25,606 nt of DNA from Patescibacteria group bacterium (GCA_038062385.1 JBBTXH010000082.1:3749-29354); one strand, 5' to 3'; positions 3,112 to 15,534 are shown, counted from the first letter of the stretch. Notes: generated by a model not told the origin, from the sequence alone. Made by a program: numbers and translations.

Positions 3112-3354
3112 CTAAAACCGCATATCGTAGGAGCTGCTTGTAGAGCTTACTTCGTCGCGGTCGTAATGATGTTCATCGCCATAAGTTGAAAAGCCGCTTC
3201 CGCCACCGCACATGCCCAAGCACGAAATATGTCGAGAACCTTGTTTAGCAGCCGTTCGAGATGTCCGAACCGGTTGTCGTGGGGTTTTCTTTGTAGTGTT
3301 GCTCCTTTTGTTTGTTTGAACTGCCACTCCCGTTTCTCCTGTTGCCGGGACCAT
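3112..3354 (-). CDS. Hypothetical 80-aa low-complexity protein
   Basis: ORF lies between a near-consensus minus-strand promoter (3394-3422) and a hairpin; weak RBS, no homolog recognised. Confidence 0.4.
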   Translation of the reverse strand: MVPATGETGVAVQTNKRSNTTKKTPRQPVRTSRTAAKQGSRHISCLGMCGGGSGFSTYGDEHHYDRDEVSSTSSSYDMRF

Positions 3355-3393
3355 CCCGTCTAAACCAATAAAAATTTATTGGAGTAACTGGAT

Positions 3394-3422
3394 AGTATAG
3401 CAGTATTATAAAAGTTTGTCAA
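3394..3422 (-). promoter_or_regulatory. Sigma70-type promoter
   Basis: TTGACA-17 nt-TATACT with extended -10 TG on the minus strand. Confidence 0.7.
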
Positions 3423-3539
3423 GCTTATTGATTGATAATCAATTTAAATGTCTGGTACAATTGATAATGTTTTTGTATATTAGTTCTTGCTAAAATTAAA
3501 CAAAAAAGGTTATATTCTCAACTTGAATGTCAGTGGCTA

Positions 3540-3846: not shown

Positions 3847-5829
3847 TTATGGTTGAACCGTGCCGTTTCCCGTGGCAAAAGAATCAAGTTCAAGCGCAGT
3901 GGTTAAAATGCTTTTTGTTCTGGTGATCAGCTCATCGGTGGAGACATCTCTCGCCACGAGCGTGCAGTTCCCAGTCAACTTGAGTAGTGTTCCGATCTCG
4001 TTTGTTTGAGGAGTAAAGGCAAGGCTGAAATTAGCATGAGCTTCTTTGACTAAAGCTGGTAAACGATTTATTTTCCAGGCAATGGTGCGGCTGGCCTCAT
4101 CAAAAGTAATTTCACCGGTCGAAACATTTTTTTCGTTTATCCAATTTATATTTTGAGGTAAGGCAGTACTTACAGTTAGATCTTTTATCTCGTGAAGATC
4201 ATTGGAAAGATCCCAAAAGATTTTTAGTTTTGTGGTTTGACCAGCGTGTGGTGGCCAAGGACCAGTACCGACCGGTGTACCATCGCTGTAATAATATAAT
4301 GCTTTTGCCCCAATGTTAACGTTAGAATTCAGCACCAGAATAACCGGACTGCTTTTAACCGGTGGAATGGCGCTATTGTTTTTTTCGTCAAGAATAATTT
4401 GAGAACTTATTTCAATGGTTGATTGATTTAATGAATTGAGATCAATGTTCGTCAATTCAGCCAGTGATTTGAGAGGTAGAATGATATTAACGGAAACATC
4501 TTTGCCGGGAGCCAGAGATTTTAATTCACTGATTTGTTTCGCTTCCCAAGTGATTTCTTTGGTTTCGTTTAATTTTTGTATTTTGCCGAAATGATCGTCT
4601 TTGATTTTGTTCCAGTTGATAATTTCAGAAGATAAACTGGTAATCAATATTTTTATTTTCAAATTTTGATAAGCAGACACGCCATTGTTTTTCGCGATCG
4701 CGGAAATGGTTAATTCGTCTCCCAATCCAACGGCTTTATTTTCCGTTGAACCGTTGACGATGAGATAAGTATTGAGCGCCTGATCAATGATTTTGATCGT
4801 GAATTTTGTTTCACTAACCGCGAGGTATTGGCCGTCTTTTCCCGGCAGAAGTATTTGTACGGTGAAAGGCTGTTCGCGTTCCGCCTCATTCTGGAAGGAT
4901 AGATCAGCGGGGAAGGAGCCTTCGATGGAGATGTTTTTGCTTTCTTCTTTCCCCTTCAGTTCAGAAATTATCCATTGGTTGCTGTCTTCATAGGCATTGG
5001 GAGAAGCGTTTAAAAAGGCAAATTTTTCCGGATAGAGATATTGAAGTTTAATGTTTTCAAACAGGCGGTCGCTTTTGTTTTTCAACTTGGTTTGCAGAGT
5101 GATTTTTTGGCCGGGAGTGAGGTTAGCCGGGAAAACATTAGCCAAGTCGATTTGCGGCGCTTCGAGTGCGATGGAAAGAGATGTCTCTTTGGTAAAGTCT
5201 GAACGGAAATTGTCAGGTTGAAAGGTAATGGCCGCGATTAATTTCTGTTCACTCTCTAAAGTATCAACGATTTTGCCGGTAATCGTGATCTTGCCTTTTT
5301 GTCCAGGGGCTAAAGTTCCCAATTCCCATTTGTGATTGGAATTTTGTGGCTCTGCTTTCATCATGATAAAGCCTTTGGGATATTGGACGGTGATGCGACT
5401 GGTCAGAAAGTCAGCGTCGCCAAGGTTTTGATAGGTGATAATGTAGGCAAATTCTTCGCCAACTTGAATTTTATCAGGAGCTTCAATGGCGATACTAACA
5501 GCTTCTGTTGCCGGCCGCACGTTGCCGCTGAAATAAAAAAAACCGGCTAACGCTGATCCGGCCAATAGCACCAGACCGATGATTGAGAAAATGACAATCT
5601 TTTTTTTGCGATGTTGTCGCTTTTCGTCGATCAATTCCTTCAGATAATATTCGTCTTTCAATTTATTGATCTGGCTTTCGTGTTTAGCATCCACGGCTTC
5701 AATTGAAACGCCATTCAATTCTTGTTCTTCTTCAGCATAAAGGTCGATCAGATCCTGAATCGGATCTTCTTTTTTGTATTTTATTTTTTTTCTTTTAAAT
5801 TTAAAAAAATGGTTTTTTTTATTATCCAT
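3847..5829 (-). CDS. Membrane-anchored extracellular protein with repeated beta-sandwich (DUF11-like) domains
   Basis: Single N-terminal TM (IVIFSIIGLVLLAGSALAGFFYF); repeats such as GEEFAYIITYQNLG and WELGTLAPGQKGKITITG. Confidence 0.7.
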   Translation of the reverse strand: MDNKKNHFFKFKRKKIKYKKEDPIQDLIDLYAEEEQELNGVSIEAVDAKHESQINKLKDEYYLKELIDEKRQHRKKKIVIFSIIGLVLLAGSALAGFFYFSGNVRPATEAVSIAIEAPDKIQVGEEFAYIITYQNLGDADFLTSRITVQYPKGFIMMKAEPQNSNHKWELGTLAPGQKGKITITGKIVDTLESEQKLIAAITFQPDNFRSDFTKETSLSIALEAPQIDLANVFPANLTPGQKITLQTKLKNKSDRLFENIKLQYLYPEKFAFLNASPNAYEDSNQWIISELKGKEESKNISIEGSFPADLSFQNEAEREQPFTVQILLPGKDGQYLAVSETKFTIKIIDQALNTYLIVNGSTENKAVGLGDELTISAIAKNNGVSAYQNLKIKILITSLSSEIINWNKIKDDHFGKIQKLNETKEITWEAKQISELKSLAPGKDVSVNIILPLKSLAELTNIDLNSLNQSTIEISSQIILDEKNNSAIPPVKSSPVILVLNSNVNIGAKALYYYSDGTPVGTGPWPPHAGQTTKLKIFWDLSNDLHEIKDLTVSTALPQNINWINEKNVSTGEITFDEASRTIAWKINRLPALVKEAHANFSLAFTPQTNEIGTLLKLTGNCTLVARDVSTDELITRTKSILTTALELDSFATGNGTVQP

Positions 5830-5852: not shown

Positions 5853-8399
5853 CTATTTGAGAGAGAGCGCGAAGAGTTGGTCAGTATAAAAAGAAGAAGC
5901 GGTTTCGATGGGACTGGCGACATCCGTTGATTTTATCGGATAGAGCCAATTCGCTGATACGCCTTCCGGCAGATTGATCTTGATGTTGAAATTTGTTTGT
6001 TGGCTGCCGGACTGTTTTTGCAGAAACAAGGAATAAAAAGAAGTTTCAGGCGCGTCGGCGAATGACAGTAAGGTTTTTTTGCCCGGCAGATTCAACTGAA
6101 AAGGAAGTTTGTATTTAAGAACAACTTTTGATTCTTCCCCTGCGTCAGTTTGAATCCAGTTGGCGAAAACTGTTTTGTTGAATTCATTGTTTATTTTTGT
6201 CTGGTTGGTCACGTCAGTTTTGATTTTTCCTTGAATATTGTCCAGAAGTTCGTCTTTTGACCAAGCGCTATTCGGCTTTTCAAAAAGTTCAGCCGGCATC
6301 TCACTGAAACCTTCGGCGGAAATAAGTTGACTGGCTAAGGGAGTATAAATTCTGGTGTAAACCAAGTTGGACCCTTGGCCTGATTGATCGGTCGGCTGAC
6401 CGTTATGTTTGCGGGTAATGGTCAGGGTATTGAAGACGTCCCCATCATCATCAATGGTTGATTCCAGTTTGATATTTTGTTCAATATAGTAATCGGTTTT
6501 ATTGCCGCCGATATTTGTATTGATAACCGAAAGATAATCTTTTGAACTGTCGAGCAGCTCTCCCGACCAACCGTAGGCGGAAAACTTTTCTTGAATAACG
6601 TCATCGGAGAAATACAGTTGAATGTCTTTTTGATCCAAACCGTTTTTAAAAACTTGAGAAATTTTCAGAAGTTGATCGCCCTTGCTGGCAAATATTTTTT
6701 TCAAAAGTTCAGGCGCGATGGCTGATAATATTTTCTTCGGTTGATTGTCTTTGATTGTTTTGTTTTCGTGATCAATGGTTTTTTGCAGTTCAGTAATAAA
6801 ACCGGCGGCCTCAAAGGTGCGGCCATCAGCCAAACTAATGTTGCCGATGATTTTCATCAGTTCCGGGATGAGCGTGGCATTGATGGCGATAACGCCGTCC
6901 ACGCTTGGGCCGCCCGAGTTTTCATAAAACCATTTTATTTTTTGGGCGGAGGTTGGGAAATTTGGAAACCAATTGGCGTCTTGCATTTCCCAGAGCGGAT
7001 TGATGAGATGCAGCGGCTCGGGTGAAATTACTTTTTTGAGCAAGGATCCTTGCAGATCGTAAGTGCCGCCTCCCGGTATTTCCATGTTTTTTATTTCACC
7101 GCGATCAATGTCCACCAAAGCATAACTGCCCATAAAGCCGCCGGTTGGTCTGATCTCATTATTGTTTTGGAAAATGAAAAGATAGCGCTTTTTGTAATCA
7201 GAACCGAGAACCTGCTGGATCGTTTGCGACAATTCATTCAAATCATCCAAGTCGCTGTGGAGGGTCAGTAGATATTTTTTAATACGGACAAAATCATTTA
7301 TTTTTTCAGTCGGAATAGCTTCCGGCCTTATTTTAGAGAGAGAGTTGTTGAGCTGATTCAGTTTTGGCGTGAGGGTGAAAAGTTTTGCTTCGATTTGCGC
7401 CAAGCGGTCGGTCAATTTCGTCTTGTTATTTTTTTTGAAATCGCTCATGAGTTCGCTGACTGATCCGCCGATTTGCGCGGCCGCGCGTCCAGCCTCCAGT
7501 AAGTATTCGGCATCAGCTAAGTTGGCTGAATCGGTTGGAAGTATTTTTAAAATTGTTTTTAGCAATGGATCAATACTGTTCAGTTCAGCGGCGGCTTGAG
7601 ACAGGGCGGAACTAGCGAGATTAAACTTCGCCTCTGCGTCAGTGGCGTTGTCTTGCGACAATTCTTGCCCGGCAATTTTCATGTCAGCATAAGCGGTCGT
7701 GGCATAATTTACTATTTGGTCTTTTGATTTTTGAATTTTTTGATAATGACCGAAAACCTTGATCGGAGCAATGATCAACAAGGCAACAACAATGAATGAA
7801 ACCACTGAACGATGCCAATTGATTGGCAGATTGAAATGATAAAATATTGGTACGGGAGTGAGTTGCTTGAACAGTTCATCGCTGTCCGGAAATTCGTCCG
7901 GCGCGGCTGGTTCGATCGGCGCCGCGCTTTCTTTGATGATGATATTCTTTGTGGCAGGCACGGACAGAACAGTGTTCTGTCCGTACGTATTTTGAGATGA
8001 TTTTTTGAAAAAAGAATGAATGCGCGCTTTGTGCTCTTCAATCGCCTTCTTTTTTTTAACAAGACCGGTTAAATCAAGCACAAAAGGCGAGTGATGATGG
8101 TGCTCGGAGCTGTTTTTTACAATAATTTCAGTATGGTGATGAACATCTTTTTTTGCCAAAGTTTCTCCAGCTGGCATCATTTTGGCCAGTTCTCGCATAA
8201 TCGTTGATTCCAGTTCTTTTTCCGGTCTGCTTACCGAGTGATGCTCCATGATGGAGTCAATCTCATGTTGAAGAAGCCCGATGGTTATCGGGGATTGATC
8301 AGTTGATTCGGTCACATGTTTTTTTTCAACTTTAACATGCGCGCTTGTCGGAGCGATTCTTTTGGAAAATTTTTTTGTTTTATGATTTTTCGGTTTCAT
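5853..8399 (-). CDS. DUF4012-domain membrane protein
   Basis: TM near aa 200; YLFIFQNNNEIRPTGGFMGSY, DANWFPNFP, VDGVIAIN, NTNIGGNKTD motifs typical of this family. Confidence 0.85.
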   Translation of the reverse strand: MKPKNHKTKKFSKRIAPTSAHVKVEKKHVTESTDQSPITIGLLQHEIDSIMEHHSVSRPEKELESTIMRELAKMMPAGETLAKKDVHHHTEIIVKNSSEHHHHSPFVLDLTGLVKKKKAIEEHKARIHSFFKKSSQNTYGQNTVLSVPATKNIIIKESAAPIEPAAPDEFPDSDELFKQLTPVPIFYHFNLPINWHRSVVSFIVVALLIIAPIKVFGHYQKIQKSKDQIVNYATTAYADMKIAGQELSQDNATDAEAKFNLASSALSQAAAELNSIDPLLKTILKILPTDSANLADAEYLLEAGRAAAQIGGSVSELMSDFKKNNKTKLTDRLAQIEAKLFTLTPKLNQLNNSLSKIRPEAIPTEKINDFVRIKKYLLTLHSDLDDLNELSQTIQQVLGSDYKKRYLFIFQNNNEIRPTGGFMGSYALVDIDRGEIKNMEIPGGGTYDLQGSLLKKVISPEPLHLINPLWEMQDANWFPNFPTSAQKIKWFYENSGGPSVDGVIAINATLIPELMKIIGNISLADGRTFEAAGFITELQKTIDHENKTIKDNQPKKILSAIAPELLKKIFASKGDQLLKISQVFKNGLDQKDIQLYFSDDVIQEKFSAYGWSGELLDSSKDYLSVINTNIGGNKTDYYIEQNIKLESTIDDDGDVFNTLTITRKHNGQPTDQSGQGSNLVYTRIYTPLASQLISAEGFSEMPAELFEKPNSAWSKDELLDNIQGKIKTDVTNQTKINNEFNKTVFANWIQTDAGEESKVVLKYKLPFQLNLPGKKTLLSFADAPETSFYSLFLQKQSGSQQTNFNIKINLPEGVSANWLYPIKSTDVASPIETASSFYTDQLFALSLK

Positions 8400-8477
8400 T
8401 GTCTATGGTTACGGATGTACGGATAAACGTACAGATAGTACAGATTATTAGACGCAGATGAGGGATATTGGGGGATA

Positions 8478-8520
8478 CCCATAAACCAGTTGCGTATTCT
8501 CGCAACGGTTTAGGGCAAGC
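8478..8520 (-). repeat. CTTG-footed hairpin element
   Basis: CCCATAAACC a GTTGCG tattct CGCAAC GGTTTAGGG CAAGC; the arm plus CAAG matches copies at 15204-15270, 17073-17113 and 23600-23636. Confidence 0.6.
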
Positions 8521-8606: not shown

Positions 8607-9709
8607 TACACCGCTAAGGTTTGCTCCGCGCATTTTTTCCAACTGAATCGTTTTACGTTTTCCAATCCTTTATTTCTGAGTTCTTGTTTTAAAGTTTCGT
8701 TTGATAAAACAGCATAAATCTGTTCAGACATTTCATTGCTGCTCCACGGGTTGAAAAACAGGGCAGAGTCATTCAGAATTTCAGGCATTGATGAGGTATT
8801 TGTGCTGACTACCGAGCAACCGCATTTTTGCGCTTCAATGGCGATAAGTCCAAAGCCTTCGATGAAAGAGGGGAGGACAAAGAGGTCAGCGGCATTATAA
8901 AGTGGGGGTAGTTCTTGATCGCTGATATAACCGGTGGTGATAATATCGTTTTTGAATGGCGAAGCGTTAATCCTTTCGCGAACTTTTGTATCGTGCAAGT
9001 CTTCTCGTCCACCAAGAACAAGTTGATGCGGTAAAGCGTAATTTTTTTTCAGCAAATTAAATGCTTCCACCAATCCGGTGAGATTTTTGTGATCTCGCCA
9101 AACGCCAACGTAAAATATGAACGGTTGGCAAATTCCGAACTTGTTTTTTACTTTATTTATTATAGCACAATTTTCAATTATTTTAAAACGTTCGTCCACA
9201 CCTTCGTGAGTGACAATGATTTTGTCCGGATTAACCTTGAAATACCGGATAATGCCTTGTTTCGTGCTCTCTGAAACAGCGATAATTTTGGTTGCTTTTT
9301 TAACGGTTGAACGGAAAACTGCGCGATAACCGAGGCGTCTGATCAAGGAATTCATTTTATGTCCGGGAAATGTCAGCGGCGTGAGGTCATGAATGGTGCA
9401 GATTGATTTTTTGGGAAATAGAATCGGCGAGTTGAAATGAGGGTAGTGAATCAGGTCGAATTTTTCTCGCAGGAATTGAATCGGCAGTAAAAATTGTTCT
9501 TGATAGGTGTACCAACGCGGAGTTACTTTGACTTTTTTAACGCGACTGTTCGGTTCAATAAATTTGGAGAAAGCCGGTTCGCGCAAAAACAAAACATATT
9601 CGTTTTCAGAGTCTATTTGAAACAAATTGTCAGTCAAGTTTTTTATGTAAGTGCCGATGCCGGTGCATTCTTCATTACCGTACATTCTGGCGTCGATGGC
9701 GATTTTCAT
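8594..9709 (-). CDS. Glycosyltransferase family 4 (GT-B)
   Basis: MKIAIDAR start, TIHDL, FYVG...HKNL, EGFGLIAIEAQKCG signature. Confidence 0.93.
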   Translation of the reverse strand: MKIAIDARMYGNEECTGIGTYIKNLTDNLFQIDSENEYVLFLREPAFSKFIEPNSRVKKVKVTPRWYTYQEQFLLPIQFLREKFDLIHYPHFNSPILFPKKSICTIHDLTPLTFPGHKMNSLIRRLGYRAVFRSTVKKATKIIAVSESTKQGIIRYFKVNPDKIIVTHEGVDERFKIIENCAIINKVKNKFGICQPFIFYVGVWRDHKNLTGLVEAFNLLKKNYALPHQLVLGGREDLHDTKVRERINASPFKNDIITTGYISDQELPPLYNAADLFVLPSFIEGFGLIAIEAQKCGCSVVSTNTSSMPEILNDSALFFNPWSSNEMSEQIYAVLSNETLKQELRNKGLENVKRFSWKKCAEQTLAVYQSI

Positions 9710-9740
9710 AGAAGCAAAAAAGCAAAGAAGCAATAAAACA
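9709..9740. repeat. 8-nt-period tandem array at GT4 start, inverted relative to 8567-8606
   Basis: tagaagca/aaaaagca/aagaagca/ataaaaca. Confidence 0.7.
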
Positions 9741-9743
9741 AAA

Positions 9744-9983
9744 CTATGGATTGTAGGTAATATCAGAGCGTCGTTCGATGGTTAATATTTTAATGACGGT
9801 TTCGTGTTTATGAAAAATAATTCTGATATTGCCTTGTCTTGCGCGAAAAACATCATCGCGGCCTTTGAGTTTCATTATATCAACATGGCTAAAATCCCCG
9901 CTTAAGATTTTTTCCAGCAGAATTTTAACCTTCGTTTTTTCTTTGGCGCTAAGTTTTACCAACGCTTTTGAAATCTTATCCAT
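9744..9983 (-). CDS. RelE/ParE-family toxin
   Basis: 79 aa, basic, DIMKLKG..DVFRARQGNIRIIF...IKILTIERR pattern; 1 nt downstream of antitoxin. Confidence 0.8.
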   Translation of the reverse strand: MDKISKALVKLSAKEKTKVKILLEKILSGDFSHVDIMKLKGRDDVFRARQGNIRIIFHKHETVIKILTIERRSDITYNP

Positions 9984-9984
9984 G

Positions 9985-10194
9985 TTATAAGCGTTTTAGA
10001 ACCTCATTGATTTCAACCCCGCCTTTTTTGATTTTTGTGAAATCAATCACTTCCTCCCAGGCTTCATCGTCAACCGGAGAAATTTTAAATATCGGTTCTG
10101 ATCGCCGAATGACGATAAACGATTCGCCGGCTTTGATTTTTTGGCGATAGGATTCTAGGTTTTCTCGTAAGGATTTTAGTTTGATGGTAGTCAT
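9985..10194 (-). CDS. Phd/YefM-family antitoxin
   Basis: MTTIKLKSLRENL..Y...I.AGESFIVIRRSEPIFKISP pattern with acidic tail. Confidence 0.82.
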   Translation of the reverse strand: MTTIKLKSLRENLESYRQKIKAGESFIVIRRSEPIFKISPVDDEAWEEVIDFTKIKKGGVEINEVLKRL

Positions 10195-10201
10195 GTTTTT
10201 C

Positions 10202-10253
10202 AAGTTAAACTTAAGGTTATCTTTAGTTTAACTTAATATTTTGGCGGTGTCAA
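10202..10253 (-). promoter_or_regulatory. TA promoter with overlapping palindromic operator
   Basis: TTGACA (10248-10253)-17-TAAACT (10225-10230); IR AAGTTAAACT 10202-10211 / AGTTTAACTT 10225-10234. Confidence 0.7.
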
Positions 10254-10301
10254 ATTTTAAAATGAAAAGCCCCAATATGATTATTGAGGCAACTTCTTGG
10301 G

Positions 10302-10514
10302 CTAGAAGGTGAGAAGAGCGCGAGGAATCCTCGGGGCGCAATAGAGAGCTTCCACCGCCGGATCAATCCCGTCAACATTTTCTCCTTCAATTCTCATCGA
10401 GGCGATCGCGCCGGTCACTATGGAATTAGCTATCATCTCGCGAAGTTCTTTTTCAGACAGATTAACCGTGACGTCCCCATCATCATCAGAAACGTGTATT
10501 TGGAAAGCAGACAT
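10302..10514 (-). CDS. Small protein with Fic-inhibitory SxxxEG motif (VbhA-like antitoxin candidate)
   Basis: AAGGAGG SD, ATG 10514, promoter TTGACA (10561-10566)-17-TAAACT; sequence contains GAIASMRIEG. Confidence 0.6.
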   Translation of the reverse strand: MSAFQIHVSDDDGDVTVNLSEKELREMIANSIVTGAIASMRIEGENVDGIDPAVEALYCAPRIPRALLTF

Positions 10515-10589
10515 TCGCACCTCCTTTGCGTAGTTTGAGTTTAACGTTTTTAGAGGTAAATGTCAATGGTTTCGTTTTAAAATGAAAAT

Positions 10590-10613
10590 CCCCATCGTGC
10601 GATGATGATGGGG
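10590..10613 (-). terminator. Terminator hairpin downstream of tRNA-Gln copy
   Basis: CCCCATCGT gcgatg ATGATGGGG, T-rich tail on minus strand. Confidence 0.65.
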
Positions 10614-10621
10614 CTTATGAG

Positions 10622-10692
10622 TTCGGGCGGGAGGGATCGAACCTCCATAATAGGATCCAAGGTCCTGTGTCCTACCATTGAACGACGCCCGA
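10622..10692 (-). tRNA. tRNA-Gln(TTG), island copy (C33, C27-A43 mismatch)
   Basis: TCGGGCG/CGCCCGA acceptor, GTTC/GGAC D-stem, CAGGA CCTTGGA TCCTA anticodon arm, GGAGG TTCGATC CCTCC T-arm; no encoded CCA. Confidence 0.88.
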
Positions 10693-10708
10693 TTTGGAAA
10701 TAAAATCG

Positions 10709-10782
10709 TGTCTCCAACGAGATTTGAACTCGTGTCACCGGCGTGAAAAGCCGGTGTCTTAATCTGGCTAGACGATGGGGAC
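10709..10782 (-). tRNA. tRNA-Glu(TTC), with deviations
   Basis: CCGGC TTTTCAC GCCGG anticodon arm, ACGAG TTCAAAT CTCGT T-arm; acceptor C4-A69 mismatch; D-loop lacks GG. Confidence 0.85.
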
Positions 10783-10832
10783 TCTTTGAAACTTGGCGGG
10801 CATTTCTGGTTAAGTACCCCACCTTTACAGCA

Positions 10833-10861
10833 ATTATAGGGCTTATTTGAGGCTTTGTCCA
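10833..10861 (-). promoter_or_regulatory. Promoter for tRNA-Glu/tRNA-Gln pair
   Basis: TGGACA (10856-10861)-17-TATAAT (10833-10838). Confidence 0.65.
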
Positions 10862-11035
10862 ACGGACAAAATGAGGCATGTGGGTCGGGGTCTTATAAGA
10901 TAACTTGTGAGACATTGGAAAAACAGATGGGTCTCACAGATTTGAGGATTGGCTAAGATAAGCGGGATAAAAGTGAGATGAGACAAATGAGACACGGAAA
11001 GAGCTTTCTCGACCATTAAGATTCCATCAATCTAT

Positions 11036-11064
11036 TTGACAAAACGAATATAATCGCATATAAT
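11036..11064 (+). promoter_or_regulatory. Promoter of Fic operon
   Basis: Perfect TTGACA-17-TATAAT. Confidence 0.8.
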
Positions 11065-11093
11065 CAAATACAGATTATACATAACATTATAAT

Positions 11094-12158
11094 ATGCCAA
11101 AATTAAACAAAAGGTTCTCTTTTAATCCCGAAGCAACCCACAAAATCTATGGCCTGATCGCGCAAATCGACGAACTGAAAGGCCAATGGAAAATGGGAGC
11201 GAATCTGTCACCGCAGACTTTAGGCATGCTGAAAAGATCGGTCATTGTCACGTCCTCTGGTGCGTCCACTCGTATTGAAGGAGCGAAGCTTACCGATGAA
11301 CAGGTTGAGAAATTGCTCAAAGGGTTGAAGATCCAAAAACTGGCCACTCGAGATGAACAAGAGGTCGCCGGCTATGCCGAGCTGCTGACCAATGTTTTTG
11401 ATTCATACAAAAAGTTGGAACTGACTGAAAGCACGATAAAACATTTCCACAGTGAACTACTGAAGTACTCGGATAAGGATGTTCGCCACCGCGGCGAGTA
11501 TAAATTTGGCACTAACCGAGTGGAAGCCAAGGATGCCGACGGGAAGGTGGTCGGCGTATTGTTCGACCCTACCCCGCTTCATTTGGTTGCCAAGGAGATG
11601 CAAGAACTTATTGAGGAAACGAAAAAACTTTTGGAAGCAAAAGAAGTCCATCCCCTGATTGTTATCGCCGCTTTTATTTTTGAATTTTTATCCATCCACC
11701 CGTTCCAAGACGGGAACGGCAGATCTTCTCGCGTGCTAACAAATTTGTTGCTTTTAAAGAACGGCTATGAATACATGCCGTATGTTTCGCATGAGAAATT
11801 AGTGGAAGACAATAAGAATGAATACTATCTTGCTCTCAATCGAACGCAACGAACGTGGAAAACGGAACACGAAGACATCAGTCCGTGGCTGTTGTTTTTC
11901 CTGAATATTATGCTCAAGCAAACTCAAATCGCAATCGGGTTGTTATCCAAAGAATCCATTGAAAATATGCTTTCGGAAAAACAACTGGCCGTCTGGCATT
12001 ATTTCAGCGCGCACGACACCGTAACGCCGAAAGAATTGCGAGACAACCTTAAAATTGCCGGGCCGACAGTGGCGCAAATTTTAAACAAGCTTTTGGAAAT
12101 GAGAAAAATTGAACGCCTGGGAGCTGGCAGAAGCTCAAGGTATCGATTGCTTAAATAA
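11094..12158 (+). CDS. Fic-family protein (class II-like) with C-terminal winged HTH
   Basis: Intact HPFQDGNGRSSR active-site motif; N-terminal STRIEG inhibitory motif. Confidence 0.93.
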   Translation: MPKLNKRFSFNPEATHKIYGLIAQIDELKGQWKMGANLSPQTLGMLKRSVIVTSSGASTRIEGAKLTDEQVEKLLKGLKIQKLATRDEQEVAGYAELLTNVFDSYKKLELTESTIKHFHSELLKYSDKDVRHRGEYKFGTNRVEAKDADGKVVGVLFDPTPLHLVAKEMQELIEETKKLLEAKEVHPLIVIAAFIFEFLSIHPFQDGNGRSSRVLTNLLLLKNGYEYMPYVSHEKLVEDNKNEYYLALNRTQRTWKTEHEDISPWLLFFLNIMLKQTQIAIGLLSKESIENMLSEKQLAVWHYFSAHDTVTPKELRDNLKIAGPTVAQILNKLLEMRKIERLGAGRSSRYRLLK

Positions 12159-12160
12159 CT

Positions 12161-12418
12161 ATGTCGATAAAAATCAAGACGGCGCATGCCCGCAATTGGT
12201 TCTACGGCAACATCTGCACCAAAAAGTGTTACGCCGACATTGAAAAGCAAAAACATTGCTATGATAAAATGGCCGAGATGATCAAAGGTAATGAAGACTA
12301 CTTCATTACGCATAACACCTTTGTTAAAACAATACGCCAAAAACACAAAGAAGTCTGTGACATTTCCGATGAGCTTTTTAACCACAATGAAAGCGATTTT
12401 TGGCATCGAAAACTTTAA
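12161..12418 (+). CDS. Hypothetical 85-aa protein
   Basis: Packed 2-3 nt from both neighbours in the same direction; no motif recognised. Confidence 0.65.
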   Translation: MSIKIKTAHARNWFYGNICTKKCYADIEKQKHCYDKMAEMIKGNEDYFITHNTFVKTIRQKHKEVCDISDELFNHNESDFWHRKL

Positions 12419-12421
12419 TTT

Positions 12422-14594
12422 GTGATTGATCTAACTCCCCAAGAAAAAATTGCTTTGTTTAAATCCCTCTTCCGCGGAAGAGAGGATGTTTTTGCCGTGC
12501 GCTGGGAGAAAAAAGACGGTTCAGCTTCCGGCTATACGCCCGTTTGCCTGAATGAATGGAAAACCGACATATGCAACAAGCTCCAAAGCAAAAAATGCAA
12601 GGATTGCGCTCATAGCCAATATATCGGGATCAGCGAGCAACACATTGAGCAGCATCTGCGCGGCGCGAAAACATATGGAATTTATCCATTATTGAATGAC
12701 AATTCATCCTGTTTTATTGTCGCTGATTTTGATGGGAATGATTGGCAAGAAAAAATCGACGGGTTCCATGGCATTTGTTCAAAGCATGATCTGCCTGCAT
12801 ATATCGAACGCTCGCGCTCCGGCAATGGCGGCCATGCCTGGATATTCTGTGAGGACAAATACCCTGCCTACAAAAGCAGAAATGTGGTCATTAACCTGCT
12901 GAAAGAAGCGGGCATAATTGATCAATTTGAAAAAGACGATTGCTTTGACCGGTTATTTCCCAATCAAGACGCGCTTAGCGGCAAAGGTTTCGGCAACCTT
13001 ATCGCCTTTGCCGCTACAAGGTGAGGCGCGCAAGCGCGACAATACCGTATTTTTAGATCCTGACGCTAATTTGTTGCCGTTTGCCGACCAATGGGAATTA
13101 TTGAAACTGATAAAACGCGTTCCAATCGCGCATTTGGATAAATTGCATGCTCTTTTCAATTCCGCCGGCGCGGAGCCGAGTTCGTCGGCTTCCGAATTAA
13201 GCATTACCGTCGGAAATATGCTTTTCCTGAATAAATCCTTTCTGCCTAAGATTTTGATAAATTACCTGAAAGATACGCTTAATTTTCTAAATTCCGACTT
13301 TCTGATAAAAAAGAAAATCGGTGCTTCGGTGTATAAGGTGGGAAAATATTTCAAGCTGATTCAAACGTTTGACGATACCATCGCCATCCCGCGCGGTTTT
13401 CTGCATAGATTGACTGATTTCCTGAAAGAAAAGCATACTGAGTATAAAATTGATGATCGGCGTTTAAAGCTCGATGAAGTAAAATTTGAAAACAGTATCA
13501 AATTGTTCCCTCATCAGGTCGAAGCAGTTGATAAAATGATCGCCGTTGACGCCGGCGTCCTAGTTGCGCCGCCCGGCTCAGGGAAAACAATCATCGGGCT
13601 AGACATAATTGCCAAACAAAAACAGCCGGCCTTGATTTTGACGAATAAAAAGCAAATCTTCAACCAATGGCTGGAACGAATAGAAGGGTTTCTTAATTTA
13701 CCAAAGCGCCAGATTGGACAATATACCTCGAATAAGAAGAAGCTTGGAGAAAAGATCACGGTCGCGATGGTGCAGACGCTGAACAACGCGGCCGAACAAG
13801 AACTCGCCGGAAAATTCGGCCTGATACTGGTGGATGAATACCATCACATGCCCGCAAAAATGTTCCGCAACGTCATCACCAGATTCAATCCTTATTTTCT
13901 TTACGGACTTACGGCCACGCCAAAACGAAAAAACAATGACACGGATTTGATCTTCTTCTTTCTCGGCGATATAATCCACACCATGCCGAATTCATTCGGG
14001 AAACCGGAAGCCGCGAAACAAAGCACCGTAGTGGCAAAGTCGCCCAGTGGTTTGAAAGTTATCATTAGAGAAACGGATTTGTCCGTTCCGTTTAAAGTCA
14101 AGACGGACAATGTGCAGATGCTGTACAAAATTATCACTTTTGATACGGCGAGAAACAAGCAAATCATTGCCGACATCAAACGCGAAGCGGAACAGAACAA
14201 ACGGTGCTTGATTTTGACCGAGCGCAAGGAACACGTGGATGTTTTGAACTCCTATCTGAAGCGAGAATATGAAACTATCATTCTGACAGGCGACTTAACC
14301 GAAAAACAGCGTCGACTGAAAGTGAAGCAGATCCAAGCAGGGCATTTCCAGATACTTATCGCCACCGGCCAGCTCATCGGAGAAGGAACTGATTTTAACA
14401 ACTTAGATTGCCTTTTTCTTGCATTTCCCTTTGCCTTTGAAGGCAAATTGACGCAATATATCGGGAGGATCAACCGCGGTCTGAATACTGGCGGAACGAT
14501 TTATGATTACAATGATAGCCAAGTCGAATATCTGAAAAGATTTTTCAAAAAGCGGAATGCTTATTATCGGAAGAACTTCGAATGTGTGCAATAG
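12422..14594 (+). pseudogene. AEP (TOTE-type) primase domain plus SF2 DExH helicase, split by one +1 frameshift
   Basis: LFRGREDVFA, GIYPLL, ADFD, ERSRSGNGGHAWIF, DRLFPNQD primase-like motifs; removing one T of TTT 13007-13009 restores GNLIALPLQGE; helicase APPGSGKT, DEYHH, TAT, QYIGR. Confidence 0.8.
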
Positions 14595-14642
14595 CGGCAA
14601 ACATAAAAACAGCCAACGAATGGATCTGTTTTTAAAATATAA

Positions 14643-14670
14643 AACCTCATCGTGCGATGACGATGAGGTT
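14643..14670 (-). terminator. Terminator of tRNA operon
   Basis: AACCTCATCGT gcgatg ACGATGAGGTT, 11 bp, T-tract on minus strand. Confidence 0.75.
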
Positions 14671-14676
14671 AATGAG

Positions 14677-14748
14677 TTCGAGCGGGAGGAATCGGACCTC
14701 CGTTCCGGGATCCAAAGTCCCGTGTCCTGCCAACTGGACGACGCTCGA
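14677..14748 (-). tRNA. tRNA-Gln(TTG), resident copy
   Basis: TCGAGCG/CGCTCGA, CGGGA CTTTGGA TCCCG, GGAGG TCCGATT CCTCC (C at position 55). Confidence 0.9.
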
Positions 14749-14775
14749 ATTACGGATTAGAAATCGAAAAAGAAA

Positions 14776-14926
14776 GTGATTAGCGCACTGGCATTATGCA
14801 AGTCGCCGCCACTTATGTGGAAGCCACGCCCGTAGATTACTGCTCCTTATGAGCGCGTAATCACCAACGCCTTGTCGCATTTGCGCCTGCCAAGTTTCCC
14901 GGGCCGGGTTCTTGGCAACTAATCAC
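14776..14926 (-). ncRNA. Unassigned 151-nt structured RNA within tRNA operon
   Basis: 8-bp closing helix GTGATTAG/CTAATCAC, several internal helices; G-U pairs favour the minus strand. Confidence 0.6.
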
Positions 14927-14928
14927 AG

Positions 14929-15013
14929 AGGAAAGAGTGGGATTCGAACCCACGGAGGCTTTCACCTCTGCGGTTTAGTAGACCGCCGCCTTAAACCACT
15001 CGGCCATCTTTCC
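14929..15013 (-). tRNA. tRNA-Ser with ACT anticodon
   Basis: GGAAAGA/TCTTTCC acceptor, GCGGT CT ACT AA ACCGC, long variable arm, GTGGG TTCGAAT CCCAC. Confidence 0.9.
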
Positions 15014-15036
15014 TTTTACAAGTGAACGTTGATTAG

Positions 15037-15177
15037 AGGAGGGAGTGGGATTTTCATCTCGCCAGCGGGCGGGACGGGCTCCACGGGAGCTTTCACCCCA
15101 GTGGTTTTCAGGACCACCGCCTTAAGCCGCCCCGCCTTCGCATGAAGCTATGACGGGGCAAGCTCGGCCATCCCTCC
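15037..15177 (-). tRNA. tRNA-Ser(TGA) with D-loop and T-loop hairpin insertions (141 nt)
   Basis: GGAGGGA/TCCCTCC acceptor, GTGGT CCTGAAA ACCAC, variable arm GGGGTGAAAGCTCC; insertions at 15129-15161 and ~15055-15080. Confidence 0.8.
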
Positions 15178-15184
15178 TTTGATT

Positions 15185-15270
15185 CAGGGCTTGTGGTTCA
15201 GGGCTTGCCCTGAACCCGAACCGCACTTAGACTAGACAAAGAACTTGGAAAGGAAGTGAGTGGTTCAGGG
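15185..15270. repeat. Composite CTTG-footed hairpin element in tRNA spacer
   Basis: CTTG CCCTGAACC (15208-15216) ... GGTTCAGGG (15262-15270); reverse complement matches 23600-23639 at both ends. Confidence 0.75.
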
Positions 15271-15343
15271 TGCGCACCGCGGGGCTCGAACCCGCGACCT
15301 ACGGATTAAAAGTCCGGTGCTCTACCAACTGAGCTAGGTGCGC
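15271..15343 (-). tRNA. tRNA-Lys(TTT)
   Basis: GCGCACC/GGTGCGC, loop CTTTTAA, GCGGG TTCGAGC CCCGC. Confidence 0.95.
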
Positions 15344-15369
15344 GTTTCAAGGAACAATTAGAACTCGCA

Positions 15370-15398
15370 ATTATAGCATATCAGAAATTTATTGTCAA
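15370..15398 (-). promoter_or_regulatory. tRNA operon promoter
   Basis: Perfect TTGACA-17-TATAAT with extended -10 TG. Confidence 0.85.
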
Positions 15399-15534
15399 TA
15401 GAAGCGGTAAAATTTGTTGTAATTCTAGCAAAAAAGATTTTTATAACAAAATTATGTTTTGACAATTCTATTCTCATTGTGCTACGTTTAAATTGGTTCT
15501 TTGAGGACAAATAAACAGAAAGGAGATAAGCGAA

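Follow-up and report, generated by a model that had tools for sequence, protein, structure and literature searches.

Defence islands and hotspots are regions whose content turns over between conserved flanking genes. The locus described here, found in a window of 25,606 nucleotides (the whole stretch of DNA that was analysed), resembles them in occupying a hypervariable slot between conserved glycosyltransferase (GT4) genes, in differing in every relative examined, and in carrying defence-type cargo. However, an accessory tRNA operon forms the slot here, and its duplicated end brackets the cargo, an arrangement that hotspot models do not predict.

Cis-mobilizable elements (CIMEs) retain attL and attR but have lost their integration and transfer genes (PMC6323972). 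The window islet shares several traits with tRNA-linked genomic islands and CIMEs: a position directly 3' of a tRNA, flanking direct repeats, an accessory or defence cargo and absence from the corresponding site in relatives. As in CIMEs, integration and transfer genes are lacking. In tRNA-linked islands the repeat is a short, near-identical 3' fragment, whereas here it is a complete tRNA with its terminator (128-130 bp, ~80% identity), neither near-identical nor limited to the tRNA 3' part. Integrase-type islands that target tRNAs carry a tyrosine or serine recombinase gene, usually beside the tRNA, whereas this islet encodes none. Furthermore, both copies are tRNA-like and each ends its own operon, and the islet contains an extra tRNA and an outward promoter.

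The cargo also has described counterparts. SoFic is an anti-phage Fic protein with a small downstream antitoxin, AS1, of 47 aa (PMC12249575). The Fic protein of the window has a similar length, the catalytic motif, an N-terminal inhibitory-helix motif and a C-terminal domain, and a small ORF lies directly downstream. This ORF differs from AS1 in its length (85 aa), in having no detectable similarity and in being absent from many cassette copies, and the window-type Fic gene differs from SoFic in always being coupled to a PrimPol-helicase gene and in falling below the NCBIfam equivalog cut-off. TOTE conflict systems comprise TPR, OB, TBP and Effector components (PMC12458937), and the Ppol-helicase pair of Thermus ICETh2 limits environmental DNA uptake (PMC7693054). 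The window AEP domain falls in Pfam AEP-TOTE, so the effector domain is present, and as in ICETh2 a primase-polymerase is paired with a helicase on a mobile element with a defence role. In contrast to TOTE systems, the islet has no TPR, OB or TBP components, and in contrast to both, primase and helicase form one fused gene, which is frameshifted.

Accessory tRNA arrays are known in bacteria and phages (PMC5966550), and phage tRNAs with altered anticodon loops evade anticodon nucleases (PMC10264068). The tRNAs clustered in the window operon (Lys UUU, Glu UUC, Gln UUG, Ser) likewise evolve fast and are redundant with conserved canonical genes located elsewhere, but the cluster is small (4-7 genes), chromosomal and syntenic across a CPR family. 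Some of its tRNAs have non-canonical loop positions (C33, A34).

Anatomy of the islet and its flanking repeats

The host is a tiny, Falkowbacteria-like groundwater bacterium of the Candidate Phyla Radiation (CPR), in which a spare, fast-evolving accessory tRNA operon sits between two GT4 genes. The features of the islet and operon are as follows, with the basis of each in brackets.

10565..10692, minus strand: repeat unit A, with GlnA at 10621-10692, a terminator hairpin at ~10590-10615 and a T-tract (ARAGORN, Rfam, alignment, folding)
10708..10782, minus strand: tRNA-Glu(UUC), within the inserted segment, between unit A and the cassette (ARAGORN; Rfam, 59.1 bits)
10783..10861, minus strand: left end of the cassette, with outward promoter TGGACA-17-TATAAT (10861-10833) and a ~45-nt leader into tRNA-Glu (11/12 consensus matches)
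10862..11093, no strand: divergent control region with repeated TGAGAC motifs and, on the plus strand, the Fic promoter TTGACA-17-TATAAT at 11036-11064 (sequence reading, comparison)
11094..12158, plus strand: Fic-domain protein, 354 aa, SoFic-like, with a C-terminal winged-helix domain (Pfam, PADLOC)
12161..12418, plus strand: 85-aa ORF with no family match (ORF reading, comparison)
12422..14594, plus strand: PrimPol (AEP-TOTE) fused to an XPB-like SF2 helicase, split into ORFs 12422-13024 and 12918-14594 (Pfam, homologues)
14595..14618, no strand: right end of the cassette; AAAAACAG forms the first half of a small hairpin that is completed by sequence in unit B (end of homology to contig L113)
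14619..14748, minus strand: repeat unit B, with GlnB at 14676-14748 and an 11-bp terminator hairpin at 14643-14670 (ARAGORN, Rfam, alignment, folding)
14776..15398, minus strand: upstream part of the accessory tRNA operon (ARAGORN, Rfam, promoter reading, relatives)
14776-14926, minus strand: 151-nt RNA, the last part upstream of unit B
14928-15013, minus strand: tRNA-Ser(ACU) (ARAGORN/Rfam)
~15037-15177, minus strand: tRNA-Ser(UGA), disrupted (ARAGORN/Rfam)
15269-15343, minus strand: tRNA-Lys(UUU) (ARAGORN/Rfam)
15398-15370, minus strand: operon promoter (promoter reading)

tRNA-Gln(UUG) and an intrinsic terminator are present twice, at 10565-10692 and 14619-14748. ARAGORN places the tRNAs at 10621-10692(-) and 14676-14748(-), and they score 55.1 (GlnA) and 59.9 bits (GlnB) with the Rfam tRNA model (gathering score 29). 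Each repeat consists of the complete tRNA and ~57 nt downstream, including the hairpin and T-tract. The units, spaced by 4,055 bp, are 81% identical over 118-119 nt by BLAST and 82% over 103 ungapped nt, with 103 of 130 aligned columns identical. Their downstream hairpins fold at -11.8 and -15.8 kcal/mol (z-scores -2.3 and -4.2). An earlier note had described this diverged direct repeat as a whole tRNA with its terminator and no 3' att fragment; ARAGORN, Rfam and BLAST agree on it, and the likeness of 79-82% extends over the full unit. Atypically, divergence in the tRNA part is as great as in the non-coding flank.

The same note had seen compensatory changes in the terminator (pair C:G to U:A between copies) and acceptor stem (G4:C to A4:U). 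Both are real and are joined by a third in the anticodon stem, where pair 28:42 changes from A:U to G:C. With 11 substitutions over 64 paired columns, chance alone gives at least three compensated double changes in 0.24% of cases (200,000 trials; P ~0.002). Copy B has all 32 of its 32 pairs intact and C55 in the T-loop, while copy A has C33 and three mispairs, namely C27-A43 and two peripheral ones in the terminator. Judged by this pairing, compensatory change has upheld the structure of both copies, completely in B but with the first signs of decay in A. Unit A forms the 3' end of a Glu-Gln transcription unit and unit B that of a Lys-Ser-Ser-RNA-Gln transcription unit, and both look functional in their promoters, terminators, tRNA scores and compensatory pairs.

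The islet departs from the one drawn in the note in that it also holds tRNA-Glu and the outward promoter and lies inside the accessory operon. This tRNA-Glu shares only 59-65% identity with its operon counterparts in relatives L127 and G009, and relatives L124 and L110 have none at the corresponding site. The hexamers of the outward promoter and its leader are kept in a JGI metagenome contig (L113), in which the transcript stops at its own hairpin, and the Fic promoter is conserved in L113 and genome G012. Terminator A is followed by a promoter and a 70-aa gene.

In the cassette, the Fic motif HPFQDGNGR is legible in the DNA and follows the pattern HxFx(D/E)GNGRxxR. The protein matches Pfam Fic (E=2.4e-16) and, nearly over its full length (residues 21-350), PADLOC SoFic (E=4e-43), and it reaches 63.8 bits with the NCBIfam SoFic equivalog NF046030, whose cut-off is 550. 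It is thus classed from its sequence as a SoFic-like protein and would not count as a SoFic equivalog. The 85-aa ORF had zero matches in Pfam, PADLOC and NCBIfam. It is an optional cassette gene, a clean indel against G012, found in L113 and L115 and missing in the Magasanikbacteria copies and L114; possibly it encodes a putative antitoxin-like partner of Fic. The first PrimPol-helicase ORF matches AEP-TOTE (PF22548; E=5.4e-72), a match that continues in the second, and ResIII and Helicase_C domains are also present. Comparison with three intact copies places a 1-nt insertion at ~13004-13006 (intact homologues have 713-730 aa). This frameshift is fixed, with zero indels across the contigs of four runs and split ORFs again in L019 and L112. 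The right end of the cassette is placed, by inference, from two sequences.

Pfam detected only Fic, AEP-TOTE and helicase domains in the islet ORFs, without an integrase or resolvase, as the description of an integrase-free islet had held; TPR, OB (cold-shock) and TBP domains were absent from every islet ORF in Pfam and NCBIfam scans. Tyrosine recombinase (PF00589) matches in the genome number three, on contigs C62, C121 and C15 only, and a search of its contigs for PF00239 gave no match.

The arrangement is shared by several independent assemblies and is therefore no chimera, an objection that the earlier note had itself raised. In a second study, one run yielded an 8,269-bp Logan contig that covers 9500-15415 gap-free, an ENA contig has 99.8% identity across 9856-15404, and a 120-kb NCBI contig has a gene order identical to that of the window.

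The site in relatives and the mobility of the cassette

A view of the site without cargo comes from three assemblies of one relative (L124, L125 and L126), whose GT4 protein is 83% identical to that of the window. There, Lys, Ser(UGA), Ser(ACU), an RNA homologue, a single Gln and its terminator are joined directly to the promoter and 70-aa gene. Compared with L124, the window has exactly one additional Gln-terminator unit, tRNA-Glu and the cassette of Fic, 85-aa ORF and PrimPol-helicase, and this extra segment is as long as the distance between the repeats (4,055 bp). L124 shares the order Lys, Ser(UGA), Ser(ACU), ~165-nt spacer, Gln. The cargo is missing at this locus in L110, L124, L127 and G009. 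The empty site in a relative thus marks the locus as a genuine insertion scar, and one of unusual type; alternatively, L124 could represent a secondary deletion between two repeats and not the ancestral state.

Operon content varies between relatives, with Lys only in L110, Lys-Ser-Ser-RNA-Gln in L124 and Lys-Ser-Ser-Ile-Glu-Pro-Gln in L127 and G009. The clustered tRNAs are redundant with canonical genes elsewhere in the genome: Gln(UUG), Glu(UUC) and Lys(UUU) are duplicated by canonical copies with encoded CCA on contigs C143, C111 and C21. The canonical Gln (C143) is 91-93% conserved across the family, versus 64-72% for the operon Gln. GlnA, GlnB and the single L124 Gln are 79% identical pairwise, in a star-like pattern.

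The cassette occurs in other contexts. Contig L113 matches window positions 10808-14567 at 76% nucleotide identity, beside a peptidase gene and tRNA-Trp, and the pairing of Fic with PrimPol-helicase is also found in Magasanikbacteria, G012, L114 and L115. By this distribution, the cassette is horizontally mobile. The note's expectation that the cargo arrived horizontally therefore held, with the cassette in other contexts and missing at the site in relatives, and the comparison across the clade that it proposed showed the empty site in L124-L126 and no clade-wide synteny of the arrangement.

PrimPol-helicase islets bounded by direct repeats (30-153 bp, 72-100% identity), often duplicated terminators, were also found in other phyla. 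Direct repeats flank the PrimPol-helicase gene within 7 kb in 13 of 80 loci and inverted repeats in two of the 80; the apparent enrichment, gauged only against inverted and same-side repeats, is modest when the latter (8 loci) are taken into account. The direct repeats are 30-264 bp long (30-157 bp except at one locus), and their identities reach 100% (L050, 107 bp; L080, 57 bp) and 96% (L043), the lowest being 72%. The L080 repeat is a duplicated rpmA terminator, and that of L043 is a tRNA-Gln 3' end with its terminator. No ORF in eight annotated repeat-bounded islets (L037, L040, L043, L047, L050, L055, L063, L080) matched a recombinase family, several ORFs there matching no family at all; a ninth islet, L084, has no further ORF of at least 70 aa. 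A clean empty site for the young islet L080 was sought in relatives and not obtained, the flank there being variable. PrimPol-helicase genes adjoin tRNA-Gln(UUG) in four other CPR lineages, and tRNA genes near them face toward the helicase at 24 of 28 locus-sides (P=2e-4).

Origin of the islet and the duplicated tRNA-Gln unit

The explanation that we favour, with roughly even confidence, is that one insertion event duplicated the Gln-terminator unit and that the copies then diverged in place. The starting state would have been an accessory tRNA operon ending in tRNA-Gln(UUG) and its intrinsic terminator. A DNA segment of ~4.06 kb, carrying a mobile conflict cassette (SoFic-like Fic gene, 85-aa ORF and PrimPol-SF2 helicase) together with tRNA-Glu, may have recombined at this unit and left one copy of it on each side, by Campbell-type integration of a circular intermediate or another target-duplicating process. 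With no recombinase of its own, the segment would have relied on host recombination or on a recombinase supplied in trans. The repeats would initially have been near-identical, with ~20% drift between them after insertion. Both Gln units would have been retained because each now terminates its own tRNA transcription unit: one may start at the 15398 promoter, take in Lys, Ser, Ser, the RNA and GlnB and stop at terminator B, and the other may start at the outward promoter of the cassette (10861), take in Glu and GlnA and stop at terminator A.

Younger PrimPol-helicase islets with identical or near-identical repeats point to such insertion-coupled duplication with later divergence. Terminators A and B are ~78% alike and either is ~50% alike to that of L124, and A and B are therefore sisters. 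The tRNA parts, at 79%, are no closer to one another than either is to L124 (79%) or to the tRNA-Gln of G024, from another family (75-79%); since the A-B distance equals that to L124, an origin as identical copies needs an old event or unusually fast tRNA divergence. Neither a circular form nor an excision junction turned up among the assembled contigs that matched the region, and no donor was identified.

It is possible, though doubtful, that the GlnA- and GlnB-terminator units are orthologous and evolved apart in two related lineages, the cassette having entered 3' of a donor's operon-terminal Gln together with that unit, by homologous or homology-facilitated recombination that set the foreign allele beside the resident one. 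The ~20% divergence is evenly spread, compensatory changes included, as this would predict. Operon alleles are mosaic (tRNA-Lys 99% identical to L110 and 85% to L124, tRNA-Ser(ACU) 99% to L124, on a background of 70-85%), and inter-lineage recombination therefore occurs here; one run also offered a glimpse of what may be a variant operon, in which Glu comes directly after Lys. The accessory operons of G009, G024, G013, L124 and L127 each end in a single tRNA-Gln, so the terminal Gln unit is what a donor would carry beside a downstream islet, and the association of PrimPol-helicase with tRNA-Gln(UUG) in other CPR lineages agrees with this. However, a search of 15 genomes of the family, 25 of the order and 400 of the class, and of the JGI metagenomes, revealed no lineage with a single A-like or B-like copy, and the terminator common to A and B is absent from the nearest relative, which makes them mutual closest kin. 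Moreover, a double crossover would replace the unit and not duplicate it, a single crossover between 128-bp sequences 80% alike (longest shared run ~12 nt) would be very inefficient, and diagnostic positions against L124 give no clean chimeric breakpoint. The earlier note had preferred two independent alleles joined by homologous recombination; structure kept by covariation and inter-lineage recombination at the locus stand, but independent evolution and joining do not follow from a star-like 79% pattern without a donor allele, where a double crossover replaces.

We consider it improbable that unequal crossing-over duplicated the Gln-terminator unit in the accessory operon long before, and independently of, the cargo, the cassette having later landed fortuitously in the spacer that follows the first terminator. 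In its favour, all relatives examined (L110, L124, L127, G009) have a rearranged operon, the operon tRNAs are redundant with conserved canonical copies, and the high A-B divergence suits an old duplication. Nevertheless, two events with end-points exactly at the repeat boundaries would be required, the tandem intermediate is seen in none of the relatives, tRNA-Glu would need explaining too, and the family-wide association with flanking repeats would be a coincidence.

There is little likelihood that the islet is a decayed, CIME-like integrase-type island, formed from a circular element whose attP held a long tRNA-Gln-like segment, with the tyrosine recombinase encoded elsewhere or lost and the repeats as attL and attR: its place 3' of a tRNA gene as in classical islands, the tRNAs facing the helicase in 24/28 cases, the short near-identical tRNA-end repeats of L031 and L043, the three tyrosine recombinase genes elsewhere in the genome and the existence of elements with attL and attR but without integration genes (PMC6323972) would fit, but the repeat spans the tRNA 5' half and whole terminator, unneeded for tRNA restoration after 3'-end integration, and is only 81% identical with no longer identical core. 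Moreover, no integrase is encoded by the repeat-bounded relatives that were examined, and the genome's recombinases are Xer-like in size and unlinked.

To a broader proposal we attach a low probability. PrimPol-SF2-helicase islets may form an unrecognised class of recombinase-free mobile elements. Insertion would take place just 3' of intrinsic terminators that serve highly expressed genes (tRNA-Gln, tRNA-Asn, rpmA) and would duplicate 30-150 bp of target sequence, gaps perhaps being filled in by the primase-polymerase of the element itself. On this view, the copy in the window would be an old one, the target duplicated by chance being a complete tRNA gene that selection has since maintained.

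Arrangement of the tRNA locus and its cassette

The genome that holds the window is a metagenome-assembled genome of 1.08 Mb in 152 contigs, and the protein neighbours identify its host as a Falkowbacteria-like member of the Patescibacteria. The window lies on contig C82. It contains five tRNA genes, all of which score 55-74 bits with the Rfam tRNA model, and a cassette of three genes, as follows.

15343-15269, minus strand: tRNA-Lys(UUU), ARAGORN
15013-14928, minus strand: tRNA-Ser(ACU), ARAGORN
14748-14676, minus strand: tRNA-Gln(UUG), "GlnB", ARAGORN
10782-10708, minus strand: tRNA-Glu(UUC), ARAGORN
10692-10621, minus strand: tRNA-Gln(UUG), "GlnA", ARAGORN
15398-15370, minus strand: promoter before tRNA-Lys, perfect sigma-70-type
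10861-10833, minus strand: promoter before tRNA-Glu
11036-11064, plus strand: promoter of the Fic operon, perfect
Between GlnB and tRNA-Glu, plus strand: Fic protein of 354 aa, SoFic-like (PADLOC, E=4e-43)
Between GlnB and tRNA-Glu, plus strand: 85-aa ORF, no family match
12422-14594, plus strand: PrimPol fused to an XPB-like SF2 helicase (Pfam AEP-TOTE, E=5e-72)

The promoters before tRNA-Lys and tRNA-Glu point to two predicted tRNA transcription units, each with a Gln-terminator unit as its 3' end, and transcription of the cassette converges on the terminator of Gln-terminator unit B (14619-14748). Contigs C143, C111 and C21 of the genome hold one further copy each of Lys(UUU) and Glu(UUC) and, besides GlnA and GlnB, another Gln(UUG) tRNA; these copies encode CCA and are very unlike the operon set, which does not. 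The canonical Gln is conserved at 91-93% in four of the five family members searched, and the operon Gln copies share only 64-72% identity between genera. The cluster is a spare operon, whose tRNAs evolve several times faster than the canonical set. Odd positions occur in the operon tRNAs (C33 in GlnA, C55 in GlnB, A34 in Ser). The ACU-anticodon tRNA-Ser is not a one-off mutation, because it is conserved at the locus in at least four lineages (window 14928-15013; L124 7750-7835; L127 6304-6389; L017 9537-9622), the three other copies being 99%, 86% and 81% identical to that of the window. Among 13 strain polymorphisms over 6.4 kb, two fall in the 75-nt tRNA-Glu (10749 and 10763; position 32 and the D-loop), on which constraint may therefore be relaxed, and none falls in either tRNA-Gln.

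The cassette is inferred to be a defence or addiction-type module. Its Fic protein carries the catalytic motif and resembles SoFic, an abortive-infection AMPylase that in E. coli is paired with a small antitoxin encoded downstream (PMC12249575), and the 85-aa ORF might be a putative antitoxin-like partner of Fic. On a mobile element of Thermus, a primase-polymerase with a helicase limits the uptake of environmental DNA (PMC7693054). The PrimPol shares the AEP domain of TOTE systems by Pfam assignment, but the TPR, OB and TBP parts that define those systems (PMC12458937) are absent from the islet. The PrimPol-helicase gene is split by a 1-nt insertion at ~13004-13006, inside the conserved GNLIALPLQG stretch. 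An assembly error was rejected as its source, since the insertion recurs in every assembly and run examined; it is absent from three intact homologues, and the frameshift is therefore real and fixed in the population. The gene here is a fixed pseudogene or a split gene, and the system may for this reason have lost part of its activity. The region between the two divergent promoters of the cassette holds several TGAGAC motifs, direct and inverted, which may be operators bound by the winged-helix domain of Fic.

An empty site in a relative

An assembly chimera, which the earlier note had named as an outcome that would undo its reading, is excluded by independent assemblies and runs. In a second study, one run yielded a contig of 8,269 bp that is gapless over 9500-15415, each junction of the arrangement is bridged in other runs, an ENA contig is 99.8% identical over 9856-15404, and a 120-kb NCBI contig has the same gene order as the window. 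Contamination was likewise rejected, given the housekeeping genes on the contig and a synteny that extends to relatives, the 120-kb contig among them.

Comparison of the locus in related genomes, which the same note had proposed, yielded both an empty site and alternative contents and showed the locus to be plastic. The slot is flanked by two conserved GT4 glycosyltransferase genes, between which the relatives have these contents.

G009 and L127: Lys, Ser, Ser, Ile, Glu, Pro, Gln
L110 (flanks at ~80-90% nucleotide identity): Lys only
L124, L125 and L126 (three assemblies of one relative; left GT4 at 83% protein identity): Lys, Ser(UGA), Ser(ACU), 151-nt RNA homologue, one Gln, terminator

The sequence upstream of the single L124 Gln matches the context of copy B, and that downstream matches the context of copy A; the L124 terminator is directly followed by a promoter and a 70-aa gene, which in the window follow terminator A. 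Read from these flanks, the window is the L124 arrangement with one Gln-terminator unit, tRNA-Glu and the cassette added, and this added segment is what the spacing of the repeats measures. A 72-aa ORF at 10302-10520 is present at ~70-83% nucleotide identity in L110 and L124, both of which lack the Fic cassette here, so it is a resident gene and was not brought by the islet.

The tRNA-Lys of the window (15269-15343) is 99% identical to that of L110 and 85% to that of L124, and its tRNA-Ser(ACU) (14928-15013) is 99% identical to that of L124, against a background of 70-85%; such a mosaic points to gene conversion, or to exchange among lineages, inside the operon. A weak Y1 (IS200/IS605-type) transposase ORF lies between a 79-aa gene and the left GT4 in L110 (3620-4183) and L127 (8381-8929) and is absent from the window. 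In sequencing run X4, a low-depth contig (depth 4) connects the 5' side of tRNA-Glu (10783) with tRNA-Lys (15278) through 11 other letters, and may come from a co-occurring relative that has a Lys-Glu operon without Ser, GlnB or the cassette.

Divergence and origin of the Gln-terminator repeat

The direct repeat comprises each tRNA-Gln and ~57 nt downstream (hairpin and T-tract), with unit A at 10565-10692 and a spacing of 4,055 bp. The units are 81% identical by BLAST and 82% identical over an ungapped stretch of 103 nt, and they agree in 103 of the 130 columns of a full alignment, in line with the earlier description of a diverged repeat of a whole tRNA-Gln and its terminator. Of the columns in which A and B differ on the cloverleaf and terminator stem, 11 are paired and 16 are not. 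Compensatory changes had been reported in the acceptor stem and the terminator; both are confirmed (acceptor 4:69 and one terminator pair), and a third pair altered on both sides with pairing kept was found in the anticodon stem (28:42). Three or more compensated pairs arose from 11 randomly placed substitutions in 0.24% of trials. All 32 pairs are intact in copy B, which has C55. In copy A, which has C33, C27 and A43 mispair and two positions of the terminator are weak. Both terminator hairpins are more stable than shuffled sequence.

Any two of GlnA, GlnB and the L124 Gln share 79% identity, and each shares 75-79% with a tRNA-Gln of another family (G024); the drift of the tRNA is therefore as large as that of its non-coding flank. 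The terminators of A and B are ~78% identical and either is ~50% identical to that of L124, so that the terminator sequence still groups A with B.

The simplest account, to which we give an even chance, is a single event in which insertion and duplication of the Gln-terminator unit occurred together. Incoming DNA would recombine at the operon-terminal Gln-terminator unit and leave one copy on each side, a picture that young relatives of the islet present with identical repeats. As the end of a tRNA operon, each unit would then have remained under selection, and the two would have diverged with compensation. The window islet would be an old copy, which fits its frameshifted helicase. The main difficulty for this account is the size of the tRNA divergence.

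The earlier note had instead proposed that two alleles, already diverged in different lineages, were brought together by homologous recombination. The mosaic Lys and Ser(ACU) alleles lend this some support, but no donor allele was found, a double crossover does not duplicate the unit, and a single crossover is unlikely between such diverged short sequences; we consider the proposal less likely. The donor was sought with a degenerate pattern over the terminator/tRNA junction in JGI metagenome contigs, which gave no sister allele, and with unit B, or unit A and Glu, against 15 family, 25 order and 400 class genomes, which gave weak tRNA-level matches only; the best, in G024 at 77-79%, is confined to the tRNA body, and the terminator there is unrelated. 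At diagnostic positions, the L124 Gln resembles A in some places and B in others, in alternation and with no clean breakpoint, and neither copy can therefore be called resident. An unrelated earlier duplication of the unit and an integrase acting in trans are minor possibilities. The genome has three tyrosine recombinase genes, all on other contigs, and neither the islet nor its contig encodes an integrase or resolvase, as the description of an integrase-free islet had held. No joint linking the two repeats, as expected on excision, was found in the contigs of four runs, rare forms being outside the reach of contigs.

To our knowledge, little is understood of gene flow in CPR bacteria, and descriptions of mobile elements in them are few. 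The locus provides a concrete CPR case with an empty site in hand, in which a defence-type cassette would have entered a tRNA operon without its own recombinase, duplicated a complete tRNA-terminator unit and supplied a promoter predicted to keep the downstream tRNAs expressed. The insertion scar that this recombinase-free defence islet represents in a CPR genome is real, reproducible and unusual. Within the theme of tRNA-linked islands and CIMEs, the islet is a variant with a diverged, still structured duplication of a whole tRNA and terminator. The spare, rapidly evolving Lys/Glu/Gln/Ser set beside a conserved set also bears on ideas of tRNA-targeting conflict.

Mobility of the cargo and the wider PrimPol-helicase family

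The cargo is mobile. Over 10808-14567, the 85-aa ORF included, the window shares 76% nucleotide identity with a JGI contig (L113), in which this stretch is flanked by a peptidase gene and tRNA-Trp at one end and by unrelated DNA at the other end. The alignment extends left to ~10794, covering the minus-strand promoter and its ~45-nt leader, which continues into tRNA-Glu in the window and has a terminal hairpin of its own in L113; the right limit of homology, ~14618, abuts repeat B. This outward promoter is conserved (10783-11093; L113 1600-1870), and the leader can form a small GGUGGG/CCCGCC hairpin. The leader pattern matched only L113 itself in metagenomes, and IMG/VR searches for a viral origin with the conserved leader, the Gln 3' end and the helicase protein returned nothing useful. 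Fic and PrimPol-helicase occur without the 85-aa ORF in G012, L114 and Magasanikbacteria, there beside type I restriction genes.

The PrimPol-helicase family comprises at least 589 loci in many phyla, with Flavobacterium, Chryseobacterium, Dysgonomonas and Bacteroides luti isolates among its culturable carriers; 80 of the loci were used for pattern counts. Nearby tRNA genes point toward the helicase on 24 of 28 locus-sides (P=2e-4), and tRNA-Gln(UUG) is a neighbour in four further CPR loci. The identity of the tRNA next to the helicase varies among loci (Gln, Ser, Asn, Phe, Val, Arg, Met, Glu, Trp), and a functional partnership with the cassette was for this reason rejected in favour of positional association. 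The partner genes are of conflict type (Fic with winged helix, AbiEi, PemK, S24 peptidase, RhuM, Schlafen).

Direct repeats bracket the helicase within 7 kb at 13 of the 80 loci and inverted repeats at two; the direct repeats span 30-264 bp, and with one locus set aside they are 30-157 bp long. In a Bacteroidetes locus (L080), a perfect 57-bp repeat of the rpmA terminator region (5767-5823, 9296-9352), found only twice in that genome, brackets a 3.5-kb islet with the helicase and a Schlafen/AlbA_2 protein; in its relatives the DNA beyond the rpmA terminator is unrelated, and this young islet therefore offers no clean empty-site comparison. In Kerfeldbacteria (L043), a 79-bp repeat of a tRNA-Gln 3' end and terminator (96%; 4465-4543, 8342-8420) encloses an 86-aa ORF, a Bro-N protein and the helicase, and in Gracilibacteria (L050) a perfect, structured 107-bp repeat (3324-3430, 8375-8481) surrounds a Fic-helicase islet adjoining tRNA-Gln. 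The remaining pairs are 72-93% identical. No recombinase family matched the ORFs scanned in eight repeat-bounded islets and one further locus, L031; several of the scanned ORFs matched nothing at all. If this repeat-bounded, recombinase-free pattern holds across the several phyla, it would point to a new route of islet insertion, and it is the lead most worth following.

A Magasanikbacteria locus (L020) is another rearranged tRNA neighbourhood around a Fic-helicase cassette. There the pair is followed by a convergent tRNA-Ser(UGA), with a second, inverted copy 3.1 kb away at 84-89% identity (10311-10398, 13510-13597) and a third copy of 52 nt, the 3' half of tRNA-Ser(UGA), at 83% (13679-13730).
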